Notes under the pieces: model-generated | The model's input: the letters and a program-made list of their open reading frames with translations, nothing else | Told to the model about the DNA's origin: nothing | Databases searched by the model: none | Position numbers and translations under genes: made by a program | Source of the DNA: Octopus vulgaris | Taxonomy: Eukaryota | Length of the DNA stretch: 64,000 nt | Assembly (NCBI GenBank): GCA_951406725.2 | Contig: OX597816.1 | Location: 104,470,001 to 104,534,000 of the forward strand | Direction: 5' to 3' | Shown: piece after piece, positions 11,796 to 61,822 of the stretch | Numbering within the stretch: position 1 is the first letter of the stretch | Layout of the letters: each line of letters opens with the position of its first letter

Positions 11796-12033
11796 ATATA
11801 TATAGAAAATAGTAAAGAGTGAAAAAACTACAGAAGGCTTGTTTTATAAGGTTAAAGAATATATTTGAGTCATTATGTTAGAAGATTGTTATGAAATTTG
11901 TTCATACAGTAACATAGTTTTGTATGAAGAAATTTTATAACATTCTTCTAACATAATGACTCAAATATATTCTTTAACCTTATAAAACAAGCCTTCTGTA
12001 GTTTTTTCACTCTTTACTATTTTCTATATATAT
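11796..12033. repeat. Fold-back palindrome with perfect 90-bp arms
   Basis: 11796-11885 is the exact reverse complement of 11944-12033; the inner spacer is also imperfectly self-complementary. Confidence 0.95.
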
Positions 12034-21534: not shown

Positions 21535-21679
21535 AGAATTTAATGAAATTAGAACAGATTGACACATTAGTATAATTATACCTAAAATCTCCATGAAGTT
21601 AAGGAGATAGACAAAGAACATATTGTACTTAGGTATAATCATACTAATGTGTCCATCTGTTCTAATCTAATTAAATTCT
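21535..21679. repeat. Inverted repeat with ~51-bp arms
   Basis: 21535-21585 versus 21629-21679, reverse complement with few mismatches. Confidence 0.85.
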
Positions 21680-21994
21680 GCAACCATACTCATGTCTCAT
21701 TACTACTTCCTGTAACTATCTTTGGGAATTTACCATGCAAAGCCTTCTCTTGCCAGTCAGATAATCCCTATGTCTTATTGTGACTCTAGCGGCTCTTAGT
21801 ACACTTTCTTCACTATTACCTATATACTTGCGTTTATAAGAAGCGTCTAATGGGTATTGTACGATACAAAGAAGGTGATATTTCGAACGCAGTATTACTG
21901 TTAAAACAGCAGAAATAATGGGTAATATTACCTTTATAACATTATCTAATTTATTTACATTTGACGGATATCTATCCTCCTCTTCTTTGTTGTT

Positions 21995-22040
21995 AACACA
22001 ACGCTTCGCCTGATATACCCACCAGCCTTCATCAGGTGTC
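21995..22040 (-). ncRNA. Minimal type I hammerhead ribozyme (one core substitution)
   Basis: Minus: GACAC-CTGATGA-AGGCTGGTGGGTATATCAGGC-GAAGC-GTT-GTGTT. Confidence 0.7.
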
Positions 22041-22181
22041 TTGGGGAAATTTCAAACCTGGGTTCTCATTCCTAAGGTATTTTTTTATGTTGTTGTTGTT
22101 GTAGTCGGGTAGTCATGATGGGTTGGGCTTTGTATATTTTACCCCAGTGTCACTTTGATGGCATGCACTGCTCTTTCACTC

Positions 22182-22251
<70 letters not shown>

Positions 22252-22298
22252 TCGTGAAATACCTTAGGAATGAGACCCTTGGTTCGAAATTTCCCCAA

Positions 22299-22344
22299 GA
22301 CACCGGATGAAGGCTGGAGAGTTTATCAACCGAAACGTTGTATT
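22299..22344 (+). ncRNA. Minimal type I hammerhead ribozyme (one core substitution)
   Basis: GACAC-CGGATGA-AGGCTGGAGAGTTTATCAACC-GAAAC-GTT-GTATT; loopless palindromic stem III AACGTT. Confidence 0.7.
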
Positions 22345-22609
22345 AACAAGATGAGGATATAAATAATGTACATAATTCCTCAACTCTTAAATATAGAACT
22401 ATATTACCTTTATAAGACGGAAAAAGTTGTCAACAAATAGCCATTGGAGTTGACCCCATATTCCCTAAGACACCGGCTGAATGCTTTGGCATTAAGCTAA
22501 ACTACCCCCTGACAACTTATCCACCGATTTTAGACGCTAAATAGATAGCTTATTGAAATGTAATGACCACGTATGTATAAATAAATAAACTTACATTTGT
22601 TTTTAATTA

Positions 22610-26923: not shown

Positions 26924-27294
26924 AGAAAGATCAGAGGAAAATGCTAGGTTGTTGAAAAAGTAATGTTAATAAGACACTAGAAATGCTACTGAAGAAACTG
27001 ATAAAGGACATTAATAAAAATAAAAGCAAAAGAGGGAAAATTTGAAAATTGTGAAATAATATTTATGAGACCCATTTATTGCAAAGAGAATGAAAAGTTC
27101 CGAAATCTCCCATCTACAGAAGGTAAAATTTAGTTTGAATGCAATATTTTGTACAAATGGAAGAATATAATAAAGTTCATAAGTAATTATGAGCAATCGG
27201 CTATATATATATATATATACTGAATGGAAATAGTATTAAAATAAAAATCTATTAATCACATCTCTGGAAGAAATTCGTGAGAACAAAATTTAAA

Positions 27295-29326
27295 ATGTTC
27301 TACAAAAAACCGTTAAAGTCTGCATCATTAGCGACAGAGACTAAAATCACAAGACCGAATGTTAAAGTTTCTAATCATCAAACTGAGACGGAAAGTAACC
27401 CTACCGTTTTGAGGAAGGTTATCTATTACCAGAACCGGTTTGTTGTGATAGATACCGTTCAGAAAAATGATCTGTCTCCGTCGCTTCCTAAAAATTCCCA
27501 AAATGATACAGTCGAGGATAGTACGGCCATTGGTTCTTCTAGTGAAGCAAAAGGTGTTAAAAATAATACTGATAACGGTAGCACAAGATTCTCCAAATTG
27601 GCAACTATTGATGAGGTTCCGACGGAAAAAGAGGAAAGTTCATTTGAAATTAGTGAGGACCTTGCTGAAAGAGATAAAAACAATACAAATAAAAAGAATA
27701 TGCAAGATAAAAATAATGCCTATCTGTTAAGTAATAAAAATAACATTCTGTATGATAATGTTGAAAATGCTTCTAACTGTTCATTTTTGTGGTCATCACA
27801 CCCCAGTCTTAGTTCTTTAACTCTGGCAAAGACCCCTTCCGAGAGCAGCCTGATTGATAGCTACGAGGCGATCGTCTCTAGTAGTTCAAAAGTTGTATGT
27901 CCATTAGCGAGTGTAAATGTTATTCAAGCAAGCGACGTTGACTTACTCGGTAATGTGACAATGACAGCGGCAGCTATAGCCGCTGCGATCAGTGGCATCA
28001 CTATCAATATTTCAAATACAACGACAGCTGCAGTAGCAGATCCCCAGGTAACCTGCAGCACCGGAAAATTGCTAGAGCGCGTGCGCACTGAAAAAGCTGA
28101 TGCCAGTCACTTGCCTACATTCCTGCCATCAGCCGGCTTGGCCTCACCAGCAGACGACGCTTTCAGTTCGCATGAAGACGCGTCCGATCTCCGCAGCCAC
28201 CATCGGCTTGATAGCGCTGTCACGGACAGCACAGCCGAAGATTCACCGAGCAAAAGTAGTGAAAACAGCACTAAATCTCCAGATAGCCAAGATAACATTT
28301 TTCAAGGAGTTCCCACTTATAAATCACACACTCAAAGAGAAAGTGAACGAAGCTACAATTACGATTATCAAGGTGAACAGAGAGAGAAAACAGAAGAAAA
28401 AAAAGAAGAGGAAATAGAAGCAAAACGAAATAAAAAGGACAGCTGTAGAAGGAAAGAATTTAAAAGAAATAAATACGGACGACACAGCACGGGTGTGAAT
28501 GTAACTTTTCCTGAAAAAAATGTCCTTAAAGATTCAAAACATTTTAAATTGACAGACTGTGATAACGACGATGTCAGTGGTGATAAGAGAGTTTTAAAAG
28601 AAAAGCAAATCGGCGCTACAGATAGAGGAATAATAATTACATCAACAACAGTAAAAGCAACAACGGTAACGAAAAGAAAACCAACATCAAAAACAGCAGC
28701 AACAGCAACAACAACAACTGTCAGAGCAGACGCAGTAGCAAGATCATCACCAGCATCAACAGCATCAGTAGCAGCAGCATCCCCAGTTACCATGGATACG
28801 CGGAGCATCGAGATAATAGTGAACGATGAAAACGAGACAAGTCATGTAGGGTACAGCAGCAGCAGCAGAGGTGGCGGGGGCGGCGGTGCAGCAGGAGGAG
28901 AAGGAGGAGGATGCAGAAGAAGTAGGGAAGGAACTGGAGATGTAGACAATTTCAACAGCGACGGTGAACCCGGTAATAGTAGTCGTGTCAGTGGCGTCCG
29001 CTCCCTCAGCGGAGGGTCGCTCCCATCTGGTGCATCTCTGAACGCAACCAAGGGACGGACTTCGGTGAAAAGAGCTGCGAGTCGGAACAACAGCAGGGCT
29101 TCTATCCAGAATAAAAGCAGTATGGAGAAGAACATGACATGGAAAAGGATATCAAAGATACTGTTAGATGACCGGATGGGTGATATTGATGACCGTGAGA
29201 AGGTACTAAACCTAGATGAACCAGGGCAGTACCGAGTGTTGAAGAAAGTACTAAATATACTTTTTGTCACCATAGGGATCGCTCTGTTACTGGCCGTTAT
29301 TGTCGTTGTTATCTACACTGCCATAG
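27295..29326 (+). CDS. First coding exon (677 codons + 1 nt) of a probable type II single-pass membrane protein
   Basis: Uninterrupted 2-kb non-repetitive ORF from AAAATG; S/T/K/E-rich disordered region, then basic residues and the hydrophobic helix VLNILFVTIGIALLLAVIVVVIYTAI; ends at AG|GTAAGT (phase 1). Family not recognised. Confidence 0.85.
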
Positions 29327-29354
29327 GTAAGTTGACGCATTCGTTTTCTCTCCT

Positions 29355-29585
29355 TCCACCACTGTCACCACTACCACCACCACCACCACAACCACAATGC
29401 AATCATTGTCATCACCACTACCAGCAACACCACTATCACCACCACCACCACCATTTAATTTCCACCACCGCAAGCACCACCACAACCACTCCCATCACTA
29501 CGCCCACCACCATACGATCACCACCATTACCTTCACTGCTCCTACTACCATTCCCCCACCACCACCACCACCACCATCACCTCCA
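29355..29585. repeat. Degenerate (CAC)n repeat at the intron start
   Basis: Visible; explains the poly-H/P/T ORF tail. Confidence 0.85.
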
Positions 29586-30299
29586 GCTTTCGATAGAGAT
29601 CGTTAAAAACTTATCTTCTTGCTTTATTAGTTGTTGTTTACATGCTGATGAAAACATTACGACGCACGCAGTAAACCCATCCTTACGCAAAACGCACGTA
29701 CGACCAACTACCCAACGTATAAACTAAATTACAGACATAAAAATGCATAGACACAGTCACACGTCTACATACAAGTGCTCGCATAAACACTTATGCAAAC
29801 GTCTACATACAGGTTACACGCTACCGTACATATTGGCAAACGAATGGTTGAGTCATGTTGTATAATATATTTTCATTGCACAACGAAGTTGACCGTTCTG
29901 ATGCAGCGTGTGTGCACACACATGTACGCACGTACACACGCATGCGTGCACACACGACCAAACGCGTATGAAAAAATATATATATATACACACACGCATA
30001 TATATGTATATGTGTGTTTCGTGCATGTATGTGTGACTGTGTTTAGAAACACACAAACAAAACATGCATAGCGTTATATATATAATGCGACTTCGTGAAT
30101 TTCTATTATAAGGATATACACAAGAGCTTACCTACGTTCATAATAGGAATCTATCGGTATAGCTCGTGTATTGAGTATGATATAACAACTGTACATACGT
30201 GTACATGAGTGACTGTATGTATGTATATGCGAGTGCCTATGTGTGTGTACGCACGCATGTGTGCGAGTGTGCTTGAGTCTGTACATTTCACATCGGTCG

Positions 30300-49061: not shown

Positions 49062-50700
49062 CGCATACACACATATACACACAATTAAAACAAGAGCTAC
49101 CTATAATTTGGTGCTAGATGTTACCTTTAATTGGTGGATTTATATAACATGTGGTATATCTCCAAGCAACCTTACAGGCATAACTATTTGATGCATTTGT
49201 ATATGGCATAGATTTCTTAATTTCATTGTATGTTATGTGCATTTACTCTTCGGATCCCATACATGACTAGCCAACCTTGTTGCCTTATTTTTGTCACTGT
49301 GTCGGAAACAAAACTGTTGTTTGCATAACGGCTTTAAAAGTACCTTCGCATAAACTAATGTAATTTTTTTCTCAATTATATTGTTTTGGAACATTGCTGT
49401 AACTTTGGTTTCATAAACAATTGCGTTTATTAAACACGCCTGATCAAGAAGGCAAAATCCAGCGTCTCACCAGTTACAATTGGGATTTGGCTCTTCATGT
49501 GACTTATGAGTGATAATGTCCTTCGTATTAGGGCAGGAGATGTACGAAATGTTTACCGAGCGTCTATTAAAAGACTTCCTGTATTTGTGGTTTGTTGGAA
49601 AATGCTTATTTAATAATACCGGGAATTTGTTGCCTAGGTTAGTTTTAATATTTAAGGAGAAAGTGGAGATAAACCATACTATTTTCCAAGGAATATTTTT
49701 ATGTATATTTTTAACAGAATGGTTATATAATATCAAATCTTTGAAGCCGCTTTTAGCTAGAACACTCTTATAGCGTGGGGCTGATTTATTAGAAATTTCC
49801 TTTGAAGAGGATAGATTAGATATCCTAGTACTGATGTTAGCTATTAAGTTTTTAAACACTATTTGGCAGTAATGAGTCTGACAGGACTGTTTATGTATAT
49901 ACGTGAGATTCTCATTAGGTTTATAAGGAGGTTTATAAGAACTTGAGTTTAAGTCTAGAGAAACATCTAAGTAATTTTGAGGCCTAACTGACTAGAAGTA
50001 TACATGAGTTTTTTCTTAAATTTATTGGGTGTATGTCCACCACAGTCGTAAGTTATGCTCAAACCATCGTTACGGTATAAACCAATGTCGTGGGTTTGGA
50101 ACTTAGATCTCAAAGTGTCTGTTCTATAGAGACCTACAAGATCACGGTCCAGGTCTATGTGATCAATATTAACATAATTTTTTGCGAACCGAAACGTCTT
50201 ATCTAACAACAATCTCGATATCGAGGAATAATAAACAACAAAGTCAAACTGCTCTATGCTTATCTTTTAAATTCCTAAACCAATGTATGACTGTGCTGGT
50301 ATTTGCTATTGTTATAGTTTAGTAGTCTGATATTAATATGTCTCTTATTTTTTTTAGCTATTACAGTTCTGGCTAGATTTAAAATCTGCAAGAGGGCTTA
50401 TAATTAGAATTGGGTTTGCGATCTTTTAAAGTAATAAAATCTTCTTGTGTAGCTCAGCATTCTAACCTATCAGTAATTTTACCTTTTTTTAGATAGGAAT
50501 TTAGCCTCACCGATAATATCATTGTATCTACCTATGTTAACTTGCCTGTATTTAGAGAAAGGGTGTCGTCGTGCAGTAATTTGTCATTAAAATCAGTATT
50601 GACTACATACAGATTATTAGTCTCGTCAGAAAATACAAATTTGTCTATAGAACTTTTAAAATTTCTAAAATCAGATTTTAGTTTGGCTTGAAAAGGGTTA
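48890..50700 (-). mobile_element. Decayed Penelope-like element (RT plus C-terminal GIY-YIG)
   Basis: In order: [11 protein letters not shown] (ADKT motif), IGLYRNDGL (YRDD), KIVWF...KHFPTNHKYRKSFNRRSVNISY, CNW*...CLLDQACL, IVY...YISLCEGTFK (GIY-YIG); hammerhead 3' half GAAACCGGTA downstream at ~48896-48905. Confidence 0.9.
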
Positions 50701-51076
50701 TACCACTTACACATCTTTATGTACATACATATATACATATACCTATGTATATATGTATACATATACACATTTGTACATTTATACATATATATGTATACAC
50801 ATGTATACATATAAGTTTGTATATATGTATATGTATACGCACATATACACACATGCATATATGAATGCGCTTATGTAGGTATTTACGTATGTATGTATCA
50901 TCATGTTCACGTTATCTTCAAAATCTTAGTCAATGTGCGTTAGTCAATCTTTGAATAAAAAGCCACCGTTGCATGATTTAAGCAACTGCTAACAAAATCA
51001 CAATAAGTATTAATATTTATATGTATATTGCGTCCTTTGTTCAGCCAACCTTTTCTTATTAGCTAATTGAATACTC

Positions 51077-54181: not shown

Positions 54182-54262
54182 TAAATTAATGAGGGTAGAA
54201 ATTGATATTAATCAATTAAAACCAGTGGTTTTGCATATTTAAAAATTATATTACATACAAAA

Positions 54263-54801
54263 AAAATTAAGAGGAATGATCACTAAATGGGACTCCTAAT
54301 ATGCAAAATATAGACGTCAAATTGCCATTACCATGAAGAGTGTGTTCTCAAGAAAAATTTCAGCAAAACGCCAAAATGTAAAAACGAGGAAGACAAATGA
54401 AAATATACGAAATAAAAAACGATTACCTACGTACCATGGTTTCACTTGTTAATGTTTCCGGCCTCAGCCCGCCAAAGTTAAGACATTTGAAAAATAACCT
54501 CAAATATGATTTGTAGAACTTTATTCATGCTCTCTTTCGGGTGAGCGTTCTATGTCTAATTCTAGAAATTATAAAGGGAAAACTACTCTGATGATCTTGC
54601 AGATATTTACATGCGTAAATATTAACAAGTGAAATCATGGTACGTAGGTAGTCATTTTTTTATTTCGTATATTTTCATTTTTACATTTTGCTGTTTTGCT
54701 GAAATTTGTTTTTTGAGAGCACACTCTTCGTGGTAATGGCGATTTGACGTCTATATTTAGCATATTAGGAGTCCACTTTAGTGGTAATTCCTCTTAATTT
54801 T
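54263..54801. mobile_element. Fold-back PLE pseudo-LTR-like element (~190-bp arms, ~155-bp spacer)
   Basis: 54263-54459 is the imperfect reverse complement of 54614-54801; flanked by TA/TG microsatellites. Confidence 0.85.
54583..54647 (+). ncRNA. Type I hammerhead ribozyme
   Basis: CTAC-T-CTGATGA (54588-54594), stem II CTTG...ATATTTAC/GTAAATAT...CAAG, GAAA (54631-54634), TCATG, GTA (54640-54642), C-GTAG. The opposite arm keeps the perfect palindrome ACCATGGT. Confidence 0.75.
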
Positions 54802-54817
54802 ATATTTATATATGTAC

Positions 54818-55918: not shown

Positions 55919-55996
<78 letters not shown>

Positions 55997-56215
55997 TCAA
56001 TATAGGGTAAAAAAAATTTTGTAGAATTCTTTTTGCCACCAGCGGCCTAGTGGGAAAAAATTAAATAGTCATAAACCATTTTTAAGTTCAACATCACAAT
56101 CAAGGAACGGCCATAATAGGCCATTCACCGACTAGAAATAACAGCCAAAAGCTTTAACCGCAAAATAACATCAATTCCGTAAACCAGGAGAAAATTAAAA
56201 AACATTTACCTTGTA

Positions 56216-56320
56216 ATTTCTTAGACGATGCACCGTTTCATCTAACGTTTAATGGTAAACTAACCTGATTAAATTAAATCAAGCCAATCTACCATGCCCT
56301 TAGATTCATCAGTAAGAAAT
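56216..56320 (-). ncRNA. Type I hammerhead ribozyme, intact core
   Basis: Minus: ATTTCTTA-CTGATGA-ATCTA...TAGAT-GAAA-CGGTGCATC-GTC-TAAGAAAT. Confidence 0.88.
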
Positions 56321-56410
56321 AGCAAGTCGGAACAGATATTTTTCACGAGGCATTCCTCTTGCCTGGTAGCAAGAGGAATGCCTCGTGAAAAATATCTGTT
56401 CCGACTTGCT

Positions 56411-56511
56411 ATTTCTTACTGATGAATCTAAGTCTAGTAGATTGGCTTGATTAATTTAATCAGGTTAGTTTACCATTAAACGGTAGAGAAACGGTGCATC
56501 GTCTAAGAAAT
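56411..56511 (+). ncRNA. Type I hammerhead ribozyme, intact core
   Basis: 8-bp stem I ATTTCTTA/TAAGAAAT, CTGATGA at 56419-56425, GAAA at 56488-56491, quasi-palindromic stem III ACGGTGCATCGT, GTC triplet at 56501-56503. Confidence 0.88.
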
Positions 56512-56618
56512 TACAAATATAAATGTTTTTTAATTTTCTCCTGGTTTACGGTGATGTTATTTTGCAGTGCTTTTGTGTTATTTCTAGTGATGAATGGCCT
56601 ATTATAACCGTCTATTTG

Positions 56619-56619
<1 letters not shown>

Positions 56620-56695
<76 letters not shown>

Positions 56696-61153: not shown

Positions 61154-61450
61154 TCCATATAATGCGAAGTCTCGTATTTGCAAATAAAGAACAGACATTA
61201 CATCTGTTGCTTTGGAGTGGTGCACGTGTTATACTGTCGGATTTCTTATTAGAAGAGGATATTTCTTTGTGCATTGGTGAAATTCAACGTTCATATGTCC
61301 TCACTGCCTGTTGTTTCCGAGGTTTCAGCTAATAAAGCTGATGTCTGGCTGTCGAAAAGAAGCCCCCACCACACACACATACACACACACACACGCACAC
61401 ACACACAAACACACGCACACGCACACACACACATATATATATGTACACAA

Positions 61451-61492
<42 letters not shown>

Positions 61493-61495
<3 letters not shown>

Positions 61496-61760
61496 ACTTC
61501 AGAAGCAGTGAACAACACGAAGTACGAAAACAAATGAGTTAAATGCGCAAGCAACGAGAGAAAAAAAATGAAAAACAGGACAAGTAACACAAATAACGAC
61601 CCTTCATCAGTTGTCAGCTGTCTATCTACTCCTCATTTCGAGCATTCGATGAAGAGTCTTTCTTTGTGTTACGTGTCATATTTTCCCTTTTCCTCTCGTA
61701 GTTAGCGTATTTAACTCATTTGTTTTTGTACTTCATGTCGTTTATTGTTTGAGACGTCCT
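61493..61760. mobile_element. Diverged fold-back element (~115-bp arms) between (TA)n runs
   Basis: 61493-61608 versus 61648-61760 reverse complement; CTGATGAAGG on the minus strand at 61601-61610. Confidence 0.7.
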
Positions 61761-61771
61761 GTGCCCATATA

Positions 61772-61822
<51 letters not shown>

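Follow-up and report, generated by a model that had tools for sequence, protein, structure and literature searches.

The palindrome at 55992-56620 of the window (the whole 64,000-nt stretch of Octopus vulgaris DNA analyzed here) is an eroded copy of a 491-nt hammerhead repeat, and we consider it likely that its two arms arose when one RNA was reverse transcribed twice by target priming, from a different fixed internal site each time. A more detailed reading, which we hold tentatively and give a little less than an even chance, is that a dimeric reverse transcriptase (RT) recognizes a duplicated signal (a hairpin followed by CCU-N-N-AUUG) on a single RNA, makes one start per cut (TA)n end, copies the RNA twice, and joins the copies head to head, using a template pool of ribozyme-cut linear monomers and circles. 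If true, this second reading would amount to genomic evidence of in vivo cutting by a retrozyme hammerhead and of rolling reverse transcription of circular RNA, and the insertions would be a record of the step by which Penelope elements integrate and of the life cycle of retrozymes. The window copy alone is likely an eroded, dead by-product of insertion and of little interest. Its features are as follows.

55924-55991, no strand: left (TA)n target microsatellite, read from the window sequence.
55992-56362, minus strand: "long" arm, unit nt 5-380 of the 491-nt retrozyme monomer by alignment to it, 97% identical, with its 3' end against (TA)n.
55992-56092, minus strand: tail of ~100 nt, unit nt 278-380, on the long arm only, between the two fixed end points.
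56006-56040, minus strand: hairpin directly 5' of the long end point, a putative RT start signal, with a 3-nt deletion here.
56216-56320, minus strand: type I hammerhead, near-intact; core 56312-56306, GAAA 56239-56236, predicted cut between 56224 and 56223.
56363-56368, no strand: head-to-head junction and 6-nt center loop; a perfect palindrome around unit nt 491/1 minus 3 nt on the left.
56365-56620, plus strand: "short" arm, unit nt 1 to ~270-277, 90% identical, with many small deletions and its 3' end against (TA)n.
56411-56511, plus strand: type I hammerhead, damaged, with the stem II closing base and ~5 nt lost; core 56419-56425, GAAA 56488-56491, predicted cut after 56503.
56592-56612, plus strand: hairpin directly 5' of the short end point, a putative RT start signal, damaged here.
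56621-56687, no strand: right (TA)n target microsatellite, read from the window sequence.

Self-comparison of the window recovered an inverted repeat at 56107-56611 (89% identity over 520 nt), and folding of the palindrome gave z = -36.8 against 20 shuffles; the ~500-bp hairpin of the original prediction is thus present, with its loop at 56363-56368. The element is larger than that hairpin, and its arms are unequal: the left one reaches as far as 55992, exceeding the symmetric part by ~100 nt, and (TA)n adjoins both outer ends. Each arm is shorter than one 491-nt unit, and no ORF of at least 150 aa was found over the locus. Of 250 positions compared, 25 differ between the arms, which have two private changes in common. 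With arms that start at unit nt 5 and nt 1, the window copy belongs to the in-phase class of insertions.

The hammerhead elements and cut sites lie where they had been predicted (plus strand, CUGAUGA 56419-56425, GAAA 56488-56491, and GUC 56501-56503; minus strand, CUGAUGA 56312-56306, GAAA 56239-56236, and GUC 56226-56224), and both motifs have the 8-bp stem I, the long stem II domain (62/66 nt), and the near-palindromic stem III that had been described. The claim of an intact ribozyme on each strand holds for the minus arm, which passes a strict descriptor (CUGANGA, GAAA, NUH core, three stems, stem I open) as the family does, but not for the plus arm, which fails it. The plus arm reads TAGA-GAAAC where the family has TAGATGAAAC, so that the stem II closing base is missing, and ~5 nt of stem II are missing as well. 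The cost of the active fold was +6.1 kcal/mol for the plus arm versus +3.2 kcal/mol for the minus arm and the family, and folding of a plus-arm dimer did not yield a double hammerhead. The plus arm might re-register with an extra A after A9, a variant found in a viroid. Covariance models did not bear out the hammerhead call: Rfam gave no hammerhead at the gathering score or at an E value of ≤10, and scans of the window, the locus, and locus L007 reported no hammerhead family. The Rfam models were probably defeated by the long stem II (an insert of ~60 nt). Because Rfam reports no hammerhead, support for the motif comes from family conservation and not from Rfam.

The original prediction further proposed that the antisense arm masks the ribozyme in a self-masking ribozyme/double-stranded RNA switch, or that the palindrome itself is the mobile unit. 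Masking is borne out by the predicted fold, in which opening costs 111 to 117 kcal/mol; in transcription of either strand, the antisense copy precedes the single ribozyme. A switch is another matter, and we regard this model as highly improbable. The long hairpin could feed small-RNA pathways, but the arms differ at one-tenth of the compared positions, the plus ribozyme is eroded, and the fold offers no alternative state, since a duplex of ~250 bp could not be toggled. With one ribozyme per strand, the window copy cannot release a monomer, and in any read-through transcript both ribozymes would be trapped in the folded duplex, which makes the copy a dead end. In the family, moreover, the inversion junction falls at positions all along the unit, and the palindrome geometry is therefore not propagated.

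That the window palindrome is an assembly artifact seems to us extremely unlikely. No junction-spanning contig was found in four public DNA runs, and 56565-56614 was uncovered in three of the four; moreover, the small deletions of the right arm resemble sequencing errors in hairpins, and such error may explain part of the erosion of that arm. Against an artifact, the locus has the exact long and short ends of the family, each in its own (TA)n, and a one-sided tail of ~100 nt is not an expected product of artifactual fold-back. Short-read contigs of runs X1 and X2 contain minus-to-plus joints of the same kind elsewhere.

A search of the octopus's own genome (2.8 Gb, 227 contigs) yielded 1,678 first-look candidates for the repeat, of which 40 were scored and were spaced 491 nt apart in arrays; the tandem period of the family arrays ranged from 484 to 495 nt. 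An exact 27-nt hammerhead-core motif had 955 matches in the genome, and its reversed control had none. We used a natural monomer (L007:1010-1500) as the coordinate system, in which the predicted cut falls after nt 146. Folded as a circle, this monomer had z = -5.2 against 25 shuffles. Both core motifs were retained in 202 of 211 hammerhead copies, among which N7 was represented by all four bases and the cleavage base was C or A. Across 16 chosen, related variants from this and a sister family, 95.8% of 544 cells paired, and 6 of 34 pairs were changed on both sides; given the relatedness of the variants, the shuffle control for this alignment does not amount to a probability. Stem III was near-palindromic in most variants. 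The lowest-energy fold of the monomer was inactive, with the core paired to stem III, and a family dimer was predicted to adopt a canonical double hammerhead. Judged from sequence, the hammerhead motif is under constraint in the family, and self-cleavage is predicted.

No ORF of at least 200 aa was found inside the family arrays, and the unit is low in GC as read from the sequence. At the family level, the unit has the makeup of a non-LTR retrozyme, and the window locus holds less than one unit per arm; no RT plus GIY-YIG ORF lies in the unit, which is accordingly not an autonomous PLE. Comparison across the family supported the earlier view of a type I hammerhead akin to those of PLE pseudo-LTRs and retrozymes. 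The suggestion of a nonautonomous retrozyme-like unit stands insofar as this is a retrozyme family, but the mobile unit is the 491-nt monomer and not the palindrome. These sequence features fit a non-LTR retrozyme with a Penelope-type head-to-head layout. Contigs of four presumed-RNA runs from three studies contain the unit, some of them bridging the cut site, and such contigs carry no information on strand, ends, or circles.

To describe the insertions, 140 further loci were fetched beyond the first set. The least biased set comprised 96 consecutive matches to the short-end pattern on contigs C1, C2, and C3 up to 90.6 Mb, a choice that misses subfamilies with variant short ends. Of these 96 insertions, picked by the short end (unit nt 277), 80 were two-armed, and the partner arm ended at nt 370 to 392 in 75, at nt 260 to 285 in none, and elsewhere in 5. 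The 16 without an automatic partner included two with tiny long ends and one three-piece structure. The tail was on exactly one arm in 75 of 80 insertions, with no clear case of a tail on both arms or on neither. Two other selections, scored by eye, gave the same picture. Among 37 loci taken from the first-listed hammerhead matches, 27 were two-armed, always 5' to 5', and 10 were single-armed; an end at nt 272 to 282 was paired with one at nt 373 to 392 in 26 of the 27, the remaining locus having a nonstandard partner. When loci were picked by the long end, 15 of 20 were two-armed, each of the 15 with a short partner. Either arm could be the longer one (30 versus 50 insertions), and arms reached 7 to 8 units. 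Both end points lie 12 to 16 nt 3' of a conserved hairpin and have a short motif in common. The family shows the insertion signature of EN+ PLEs, with a head-to-head inverted copy, a one-sided tail, and a (TA)n target. The inversion junction falls at a differing unit position in nearly every insertion. Because the junction position differs between insertions, the palindrome is built anew each time.

Two side observations concern the long end. Single-armed insertions of the hammerhead-picked set kept it in 9 of 10 cases (by eye). Genome-wide, exact long ends numbered 922 versus 465 exact short ends, a difference that stems partly from short-end variants.

The two arms of an insertion resembled each other more than they resembled other copies: in 51 loci with a shared segment, arm divergence within a locus had a median of 0.39%, versus 5.5% between loci. 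Locus-private variants were found in both arms in 21 cases and in one arm only in 124, the latter mostly in a few eroded loci. Such sharing is expected of two copies of one RNA, but it could also reflect gene conversion between arms. At the junctions of the 80 two-armed insertions, overlap (microhomology) was mostly 0 to 4 nt. Both arms started within 10 nt of each other in 21 of the 80, compared with a permutation mean of 3.7 and maximum of 12, and the other 59 were out of phase. Arm lengths were correlated (rho of 0.67, and 0.62 without the in-phase cases), and the long arm exceeded the short by 106 ± 10 nt in 17 of 75 insertions.

These data bear on a fold-back or self-priming origin, in which a single primed cDNA (or, as has been proposed for PLEs, an antisense template) folds back on itself and is extended into a perfect palindrome, with later asymmetric deletions and gain or loss of units producing the offsets. 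Self-priming is the published proposal for such junctions in the text of PMC3846280 available to us. It predicts both the in-phase junctions and the correlated arm lengths, which on this count weigh against two separate primings; the near-constant length difference in 17 of 75 insertions, the near-identical arms, and the center of the window copy, which looks like a perfect palindrome minus 3 nt, also speak for it. We nevertheless judge it unlikely. Most junctions were out of phase, and the longer arm could be either one. Barring large one-sided deletions, the long arm was too short to have served as template in 14 of 75 insertions, never extending as far as nt 277, and the short arm was too long to be its copy in 34 of 75. 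Furthermore, the short end, like the long end, meets (TA)n at a constant position that follows a conserved hairpin and motif, and this arrangement is more easily understood as a priming site than as a stop site.

In-phase long palindromes (window 56365-56620 and loci L059, L060, and L149) were eroded by small deletions. The arms were more than 5% apart in 3 of 6 in-phase long palindromes versus 1 of 31 offset insertions (P = 0.01). This erosion could be due to hairpin mutagenesis or to sequencing error.

We then consider where the arms stop. Over 171 arms, first-pass stops occurred at 6.4/kb at unit nt 147 to 176 versus 1.6/kb at nt 117 to 146 (22 versus 5; P = 0.002), the 30-nt interval having been chosen after the peak was seen in an overlapping, partly biased set with its bias around nt 130 to 156. 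The rate at nt 177 to 206 was 2.0/kb, and in later passes the rate at nt 147 to 176 was 2.4/kb (versus the first pass, P = 0.025). The excess lay 7 to 27 nt from the cut; no arm stopped at nt 147 to 152, which counts against the reading with two primings. A second stop peak lay at the 321-366 hairpin. The cut site was crossed by 105 of the 126 arms that reach nt 176. By insertion, it was crossed by neither arm in 26, by both in 39, and by one only in 10, and other thresholds gave a similar association. The stop pattern is consistent with a template pool that contains cut linear monomers together with circles or uncut multimers.

It is possible, although on balance doubtful, that no circle is involved and that tandem arms come from uncut linear multimer transcripts, the pile-up at nt 147 to 176 reflecting RT stalling at the ribozyme structure or A/T-rich microhomology; this would be compatible with two primings. 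The frequent crossing of the cut site and the second pile-up agree with it. So does the finding, in the part of PMC11167929 consulted, that the hammerhead of PAc (Poseidon of Anolis carolinensis) is dispensable in vitro and that no RNA ends were seen at its cut site. On the other side, the excess was limited to the first pass, and since stalling would act on every pass, this counts against stalling. The likeness of the two arms of an insertion in crossing or not crossing the cut argues in the same direction, although the association also holds at other thresholds.

The search for a partner enzyme returned a PLE of the Hydra clade in the same genome, with a 2,590-nt unit, an intact 708-aa RT/EN ORF, and a 67-nt tail (L216:4210-6799 on contig C11; loci L173-L216). 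It is young and very abundant, with many copies 99 to 100% identical, and protein searches of the genome were dominated by this one Hydra family. Its assignment follows the clade definition in section 11 of PMC8557442 and rests on motifs (<3 kb, C-terminal EN, RWK, DKT, CxCX5C, CxxC, CxH, and (TA)n insertion); the GIY-YIG match in the L216 protein was weak (E = 0.013), and no PDB match to the protein was obtained. In 17 of 17 clear insertions its arms ended at unit nt 168 and 235, with four more degraded or truncated (by eye). The Hydra PLE had no DNA similarity to the retrozyme monomer, no canonical hammerhead in its pLTR under the strict descriptor, and no hairpin-motif ends; a structured stretch between its long end and the ORF (unit nt ~240 to 320) had no Rfam match. 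Since it obeys the end rule yet lacks similarity to the retrozyme, the rule belongs to the PLE machinery, with the partner itself unproven, and the Hydra PLE is a candidate partner only. An older PLE family was rejected as the autonomous partner, having no similarity to either retrozyme. No pLTR homology was found to these two PLE families, out of many in the genome, and no ORF-bearing body was found in 20 loci picked by the long end alone. For the reading with two primings, this is a point against: no enzyme among the families compared matched the retrozyme, and the Hydra family is dissimilar in DNA, ends, and hammerhead.

The rule also extends to a sister retrozyme of 475 nt, 73% identical to the monomer, with 1,832 first-look candidates (L057:4740-5200; L221-L250). 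In its hammerhead, the first pair of stem II is mismatched. Both of its ends have nearly the same motif after a hairpin, and the hairpins are kept despite changed sequence. Of 30 sister-family loci fetched, 15 were two-armed, and all 15 paired a short with a long end (by eye).

Under the mechanism that we propose, unpaired tandem units at a source locus would be transcribed and would self-cleave, probably as double hammerheads joined by the palindromic stem III; the products would be linear monomers, some of them then ligated into circles. A Penelope-like RT/GIY-YIG protein supplied in trans, probably as a dimer, would cut both strands of the (TA)n target, whose sequence is the same on either strand. 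One 3'-OH would prime at unit nt ~380 and the other at ~277, each 12 to 16 nt 3' of a hairpin and through 2 to 4 nt of AU/TA pairing; the long site may prime first. Each cDNA would extend toward the RNA 5' end, stopping near the cut on a linear monomer and copying tandem units on a circle or multimer, and the two cDNA 3' ends would be united by end-joining. If the two cDNAs ended at one template position, as with nt 5 and nt 1 here, a near-perfect palindrome would form and erode later. Two RT subunits on one RNA would often be halted at the same template end or block, and such shared stops would explain the in-phase and the offset classes alike. The family offers a small noncoding substrate for studying this process: the RNA is 491 nt long, its two start sites are mapped, two hairpins are candidate signals, the target is symmetric, and young insertions number in the hundreds.

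Several other elements were seen in the window and around the fetched loci. The window contains five further fold-back elements (11796-12033, 54252-54812, 61435-61818, 21535-21679, and 21990-22349), with hammerhead-like core remnants in those at 21990-22349 and 61435-61818; such palindromes are thus common in the genome. A decayed PLE fragment at 49242-50738 (minus strand) is 26 to 40% identical to the Hydra protein. An open frame of 823 codons at 27256-29727 (plus strand) is of low complexity, contains a hydrophobic segment with an apparent splice donor after it, had no Pfam match, and is probably a host exon. Several unrelated type I hammerhead families with a palindromic stem III occur in the flanks of fetched loci (L007:2493-3263; L153, L071, L131, L100, L111, and L065), some of them likewise head to head.

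The consulted sections of PMC8557442, PMC11167929, and bioRxiv 10.64898/2026.07.22.740005 describe as open questions the way in which PLEs generate inverted copies tailed on one side, the role of their hammerheads, and whether retrozyme circles are transposition intermediates. Already known are retrozymes as PLE derivatives, an inverted copy with a one-sided tail of 30 to 40 nt, (TA)n targeting, and two internal starts. The literature searched, older key papers and supplements aside, does not describe the strict rule of one site per side, a tail of ~106 nt bounded by a duplicated hairpin signal, or a first-pass excess of stops at the cut site.

As portrayed in the available text of Cervera and de la Pena (2020; PMC7229834) and of Li, Clavereau, and Pollet (2026; bioRxiv 10.64898/2026.07.22.740005), metazoan non-LTR retrozymes are likewise noncoding, low-GC tandem units with one type I hammerhead each, dispersed as dimers to multimers, with a palindromic stem III suited to dimeric cleavage and a proposed PLE-driven mobility. 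The octopus unit, at 491 nt, is larger than the 150 to 450 bp given in PMC7229834 and lies inside the 51 to 972 bp of the bioRxiv report. It is unlike those retrozymes in its stem II domain of 60 to 66 nt and in the systematic head-to-head arrangement of its arms, which have two fixed ends; the text of PMC7229834 at hand never uses the word "inverted," and a head-to-head description was not found in the corresponding portion of the bioRxiv report.

EN+ PLE insertions, as covered in the sections seen of PMC8557442 and PMC3846280, likewise have an inverted 5'-truncated copy beside partial tandems, a tail at one end, a (TA)n target, and palindromic junctions. Their tail is 30 to 40 nt, compared with ~106 nt here, where there is also no ORF. 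In these sources the tail is described as optional or as lying "often at one end," and the layout is explained by EN-mediated resolution or self-priming, whereas in the octopus family exactly one arm is tailed in nearly every two-armed insertion.

The closest experimental counterpart is PAc, studied by Frangieh et al. in 2024 (PMC11167929). According to the consulted part of that work, two internal RT start sites define its tail, the target is AT-rich, the enzyme cleaves and extends both strands in vitro, and a dimer is predicted. PAc starts in an AC-rich stem-loop without target homology and showed no strand difference in start site in vitro, which stands against two strand-specific primings; for the same reason, that work leaves the strict one-each rule unexplained. 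In the octopus family, by comparison, the starts lie 12 to 16 nt 3' of a hairpin at AU/TA microhomology, with one site per side.
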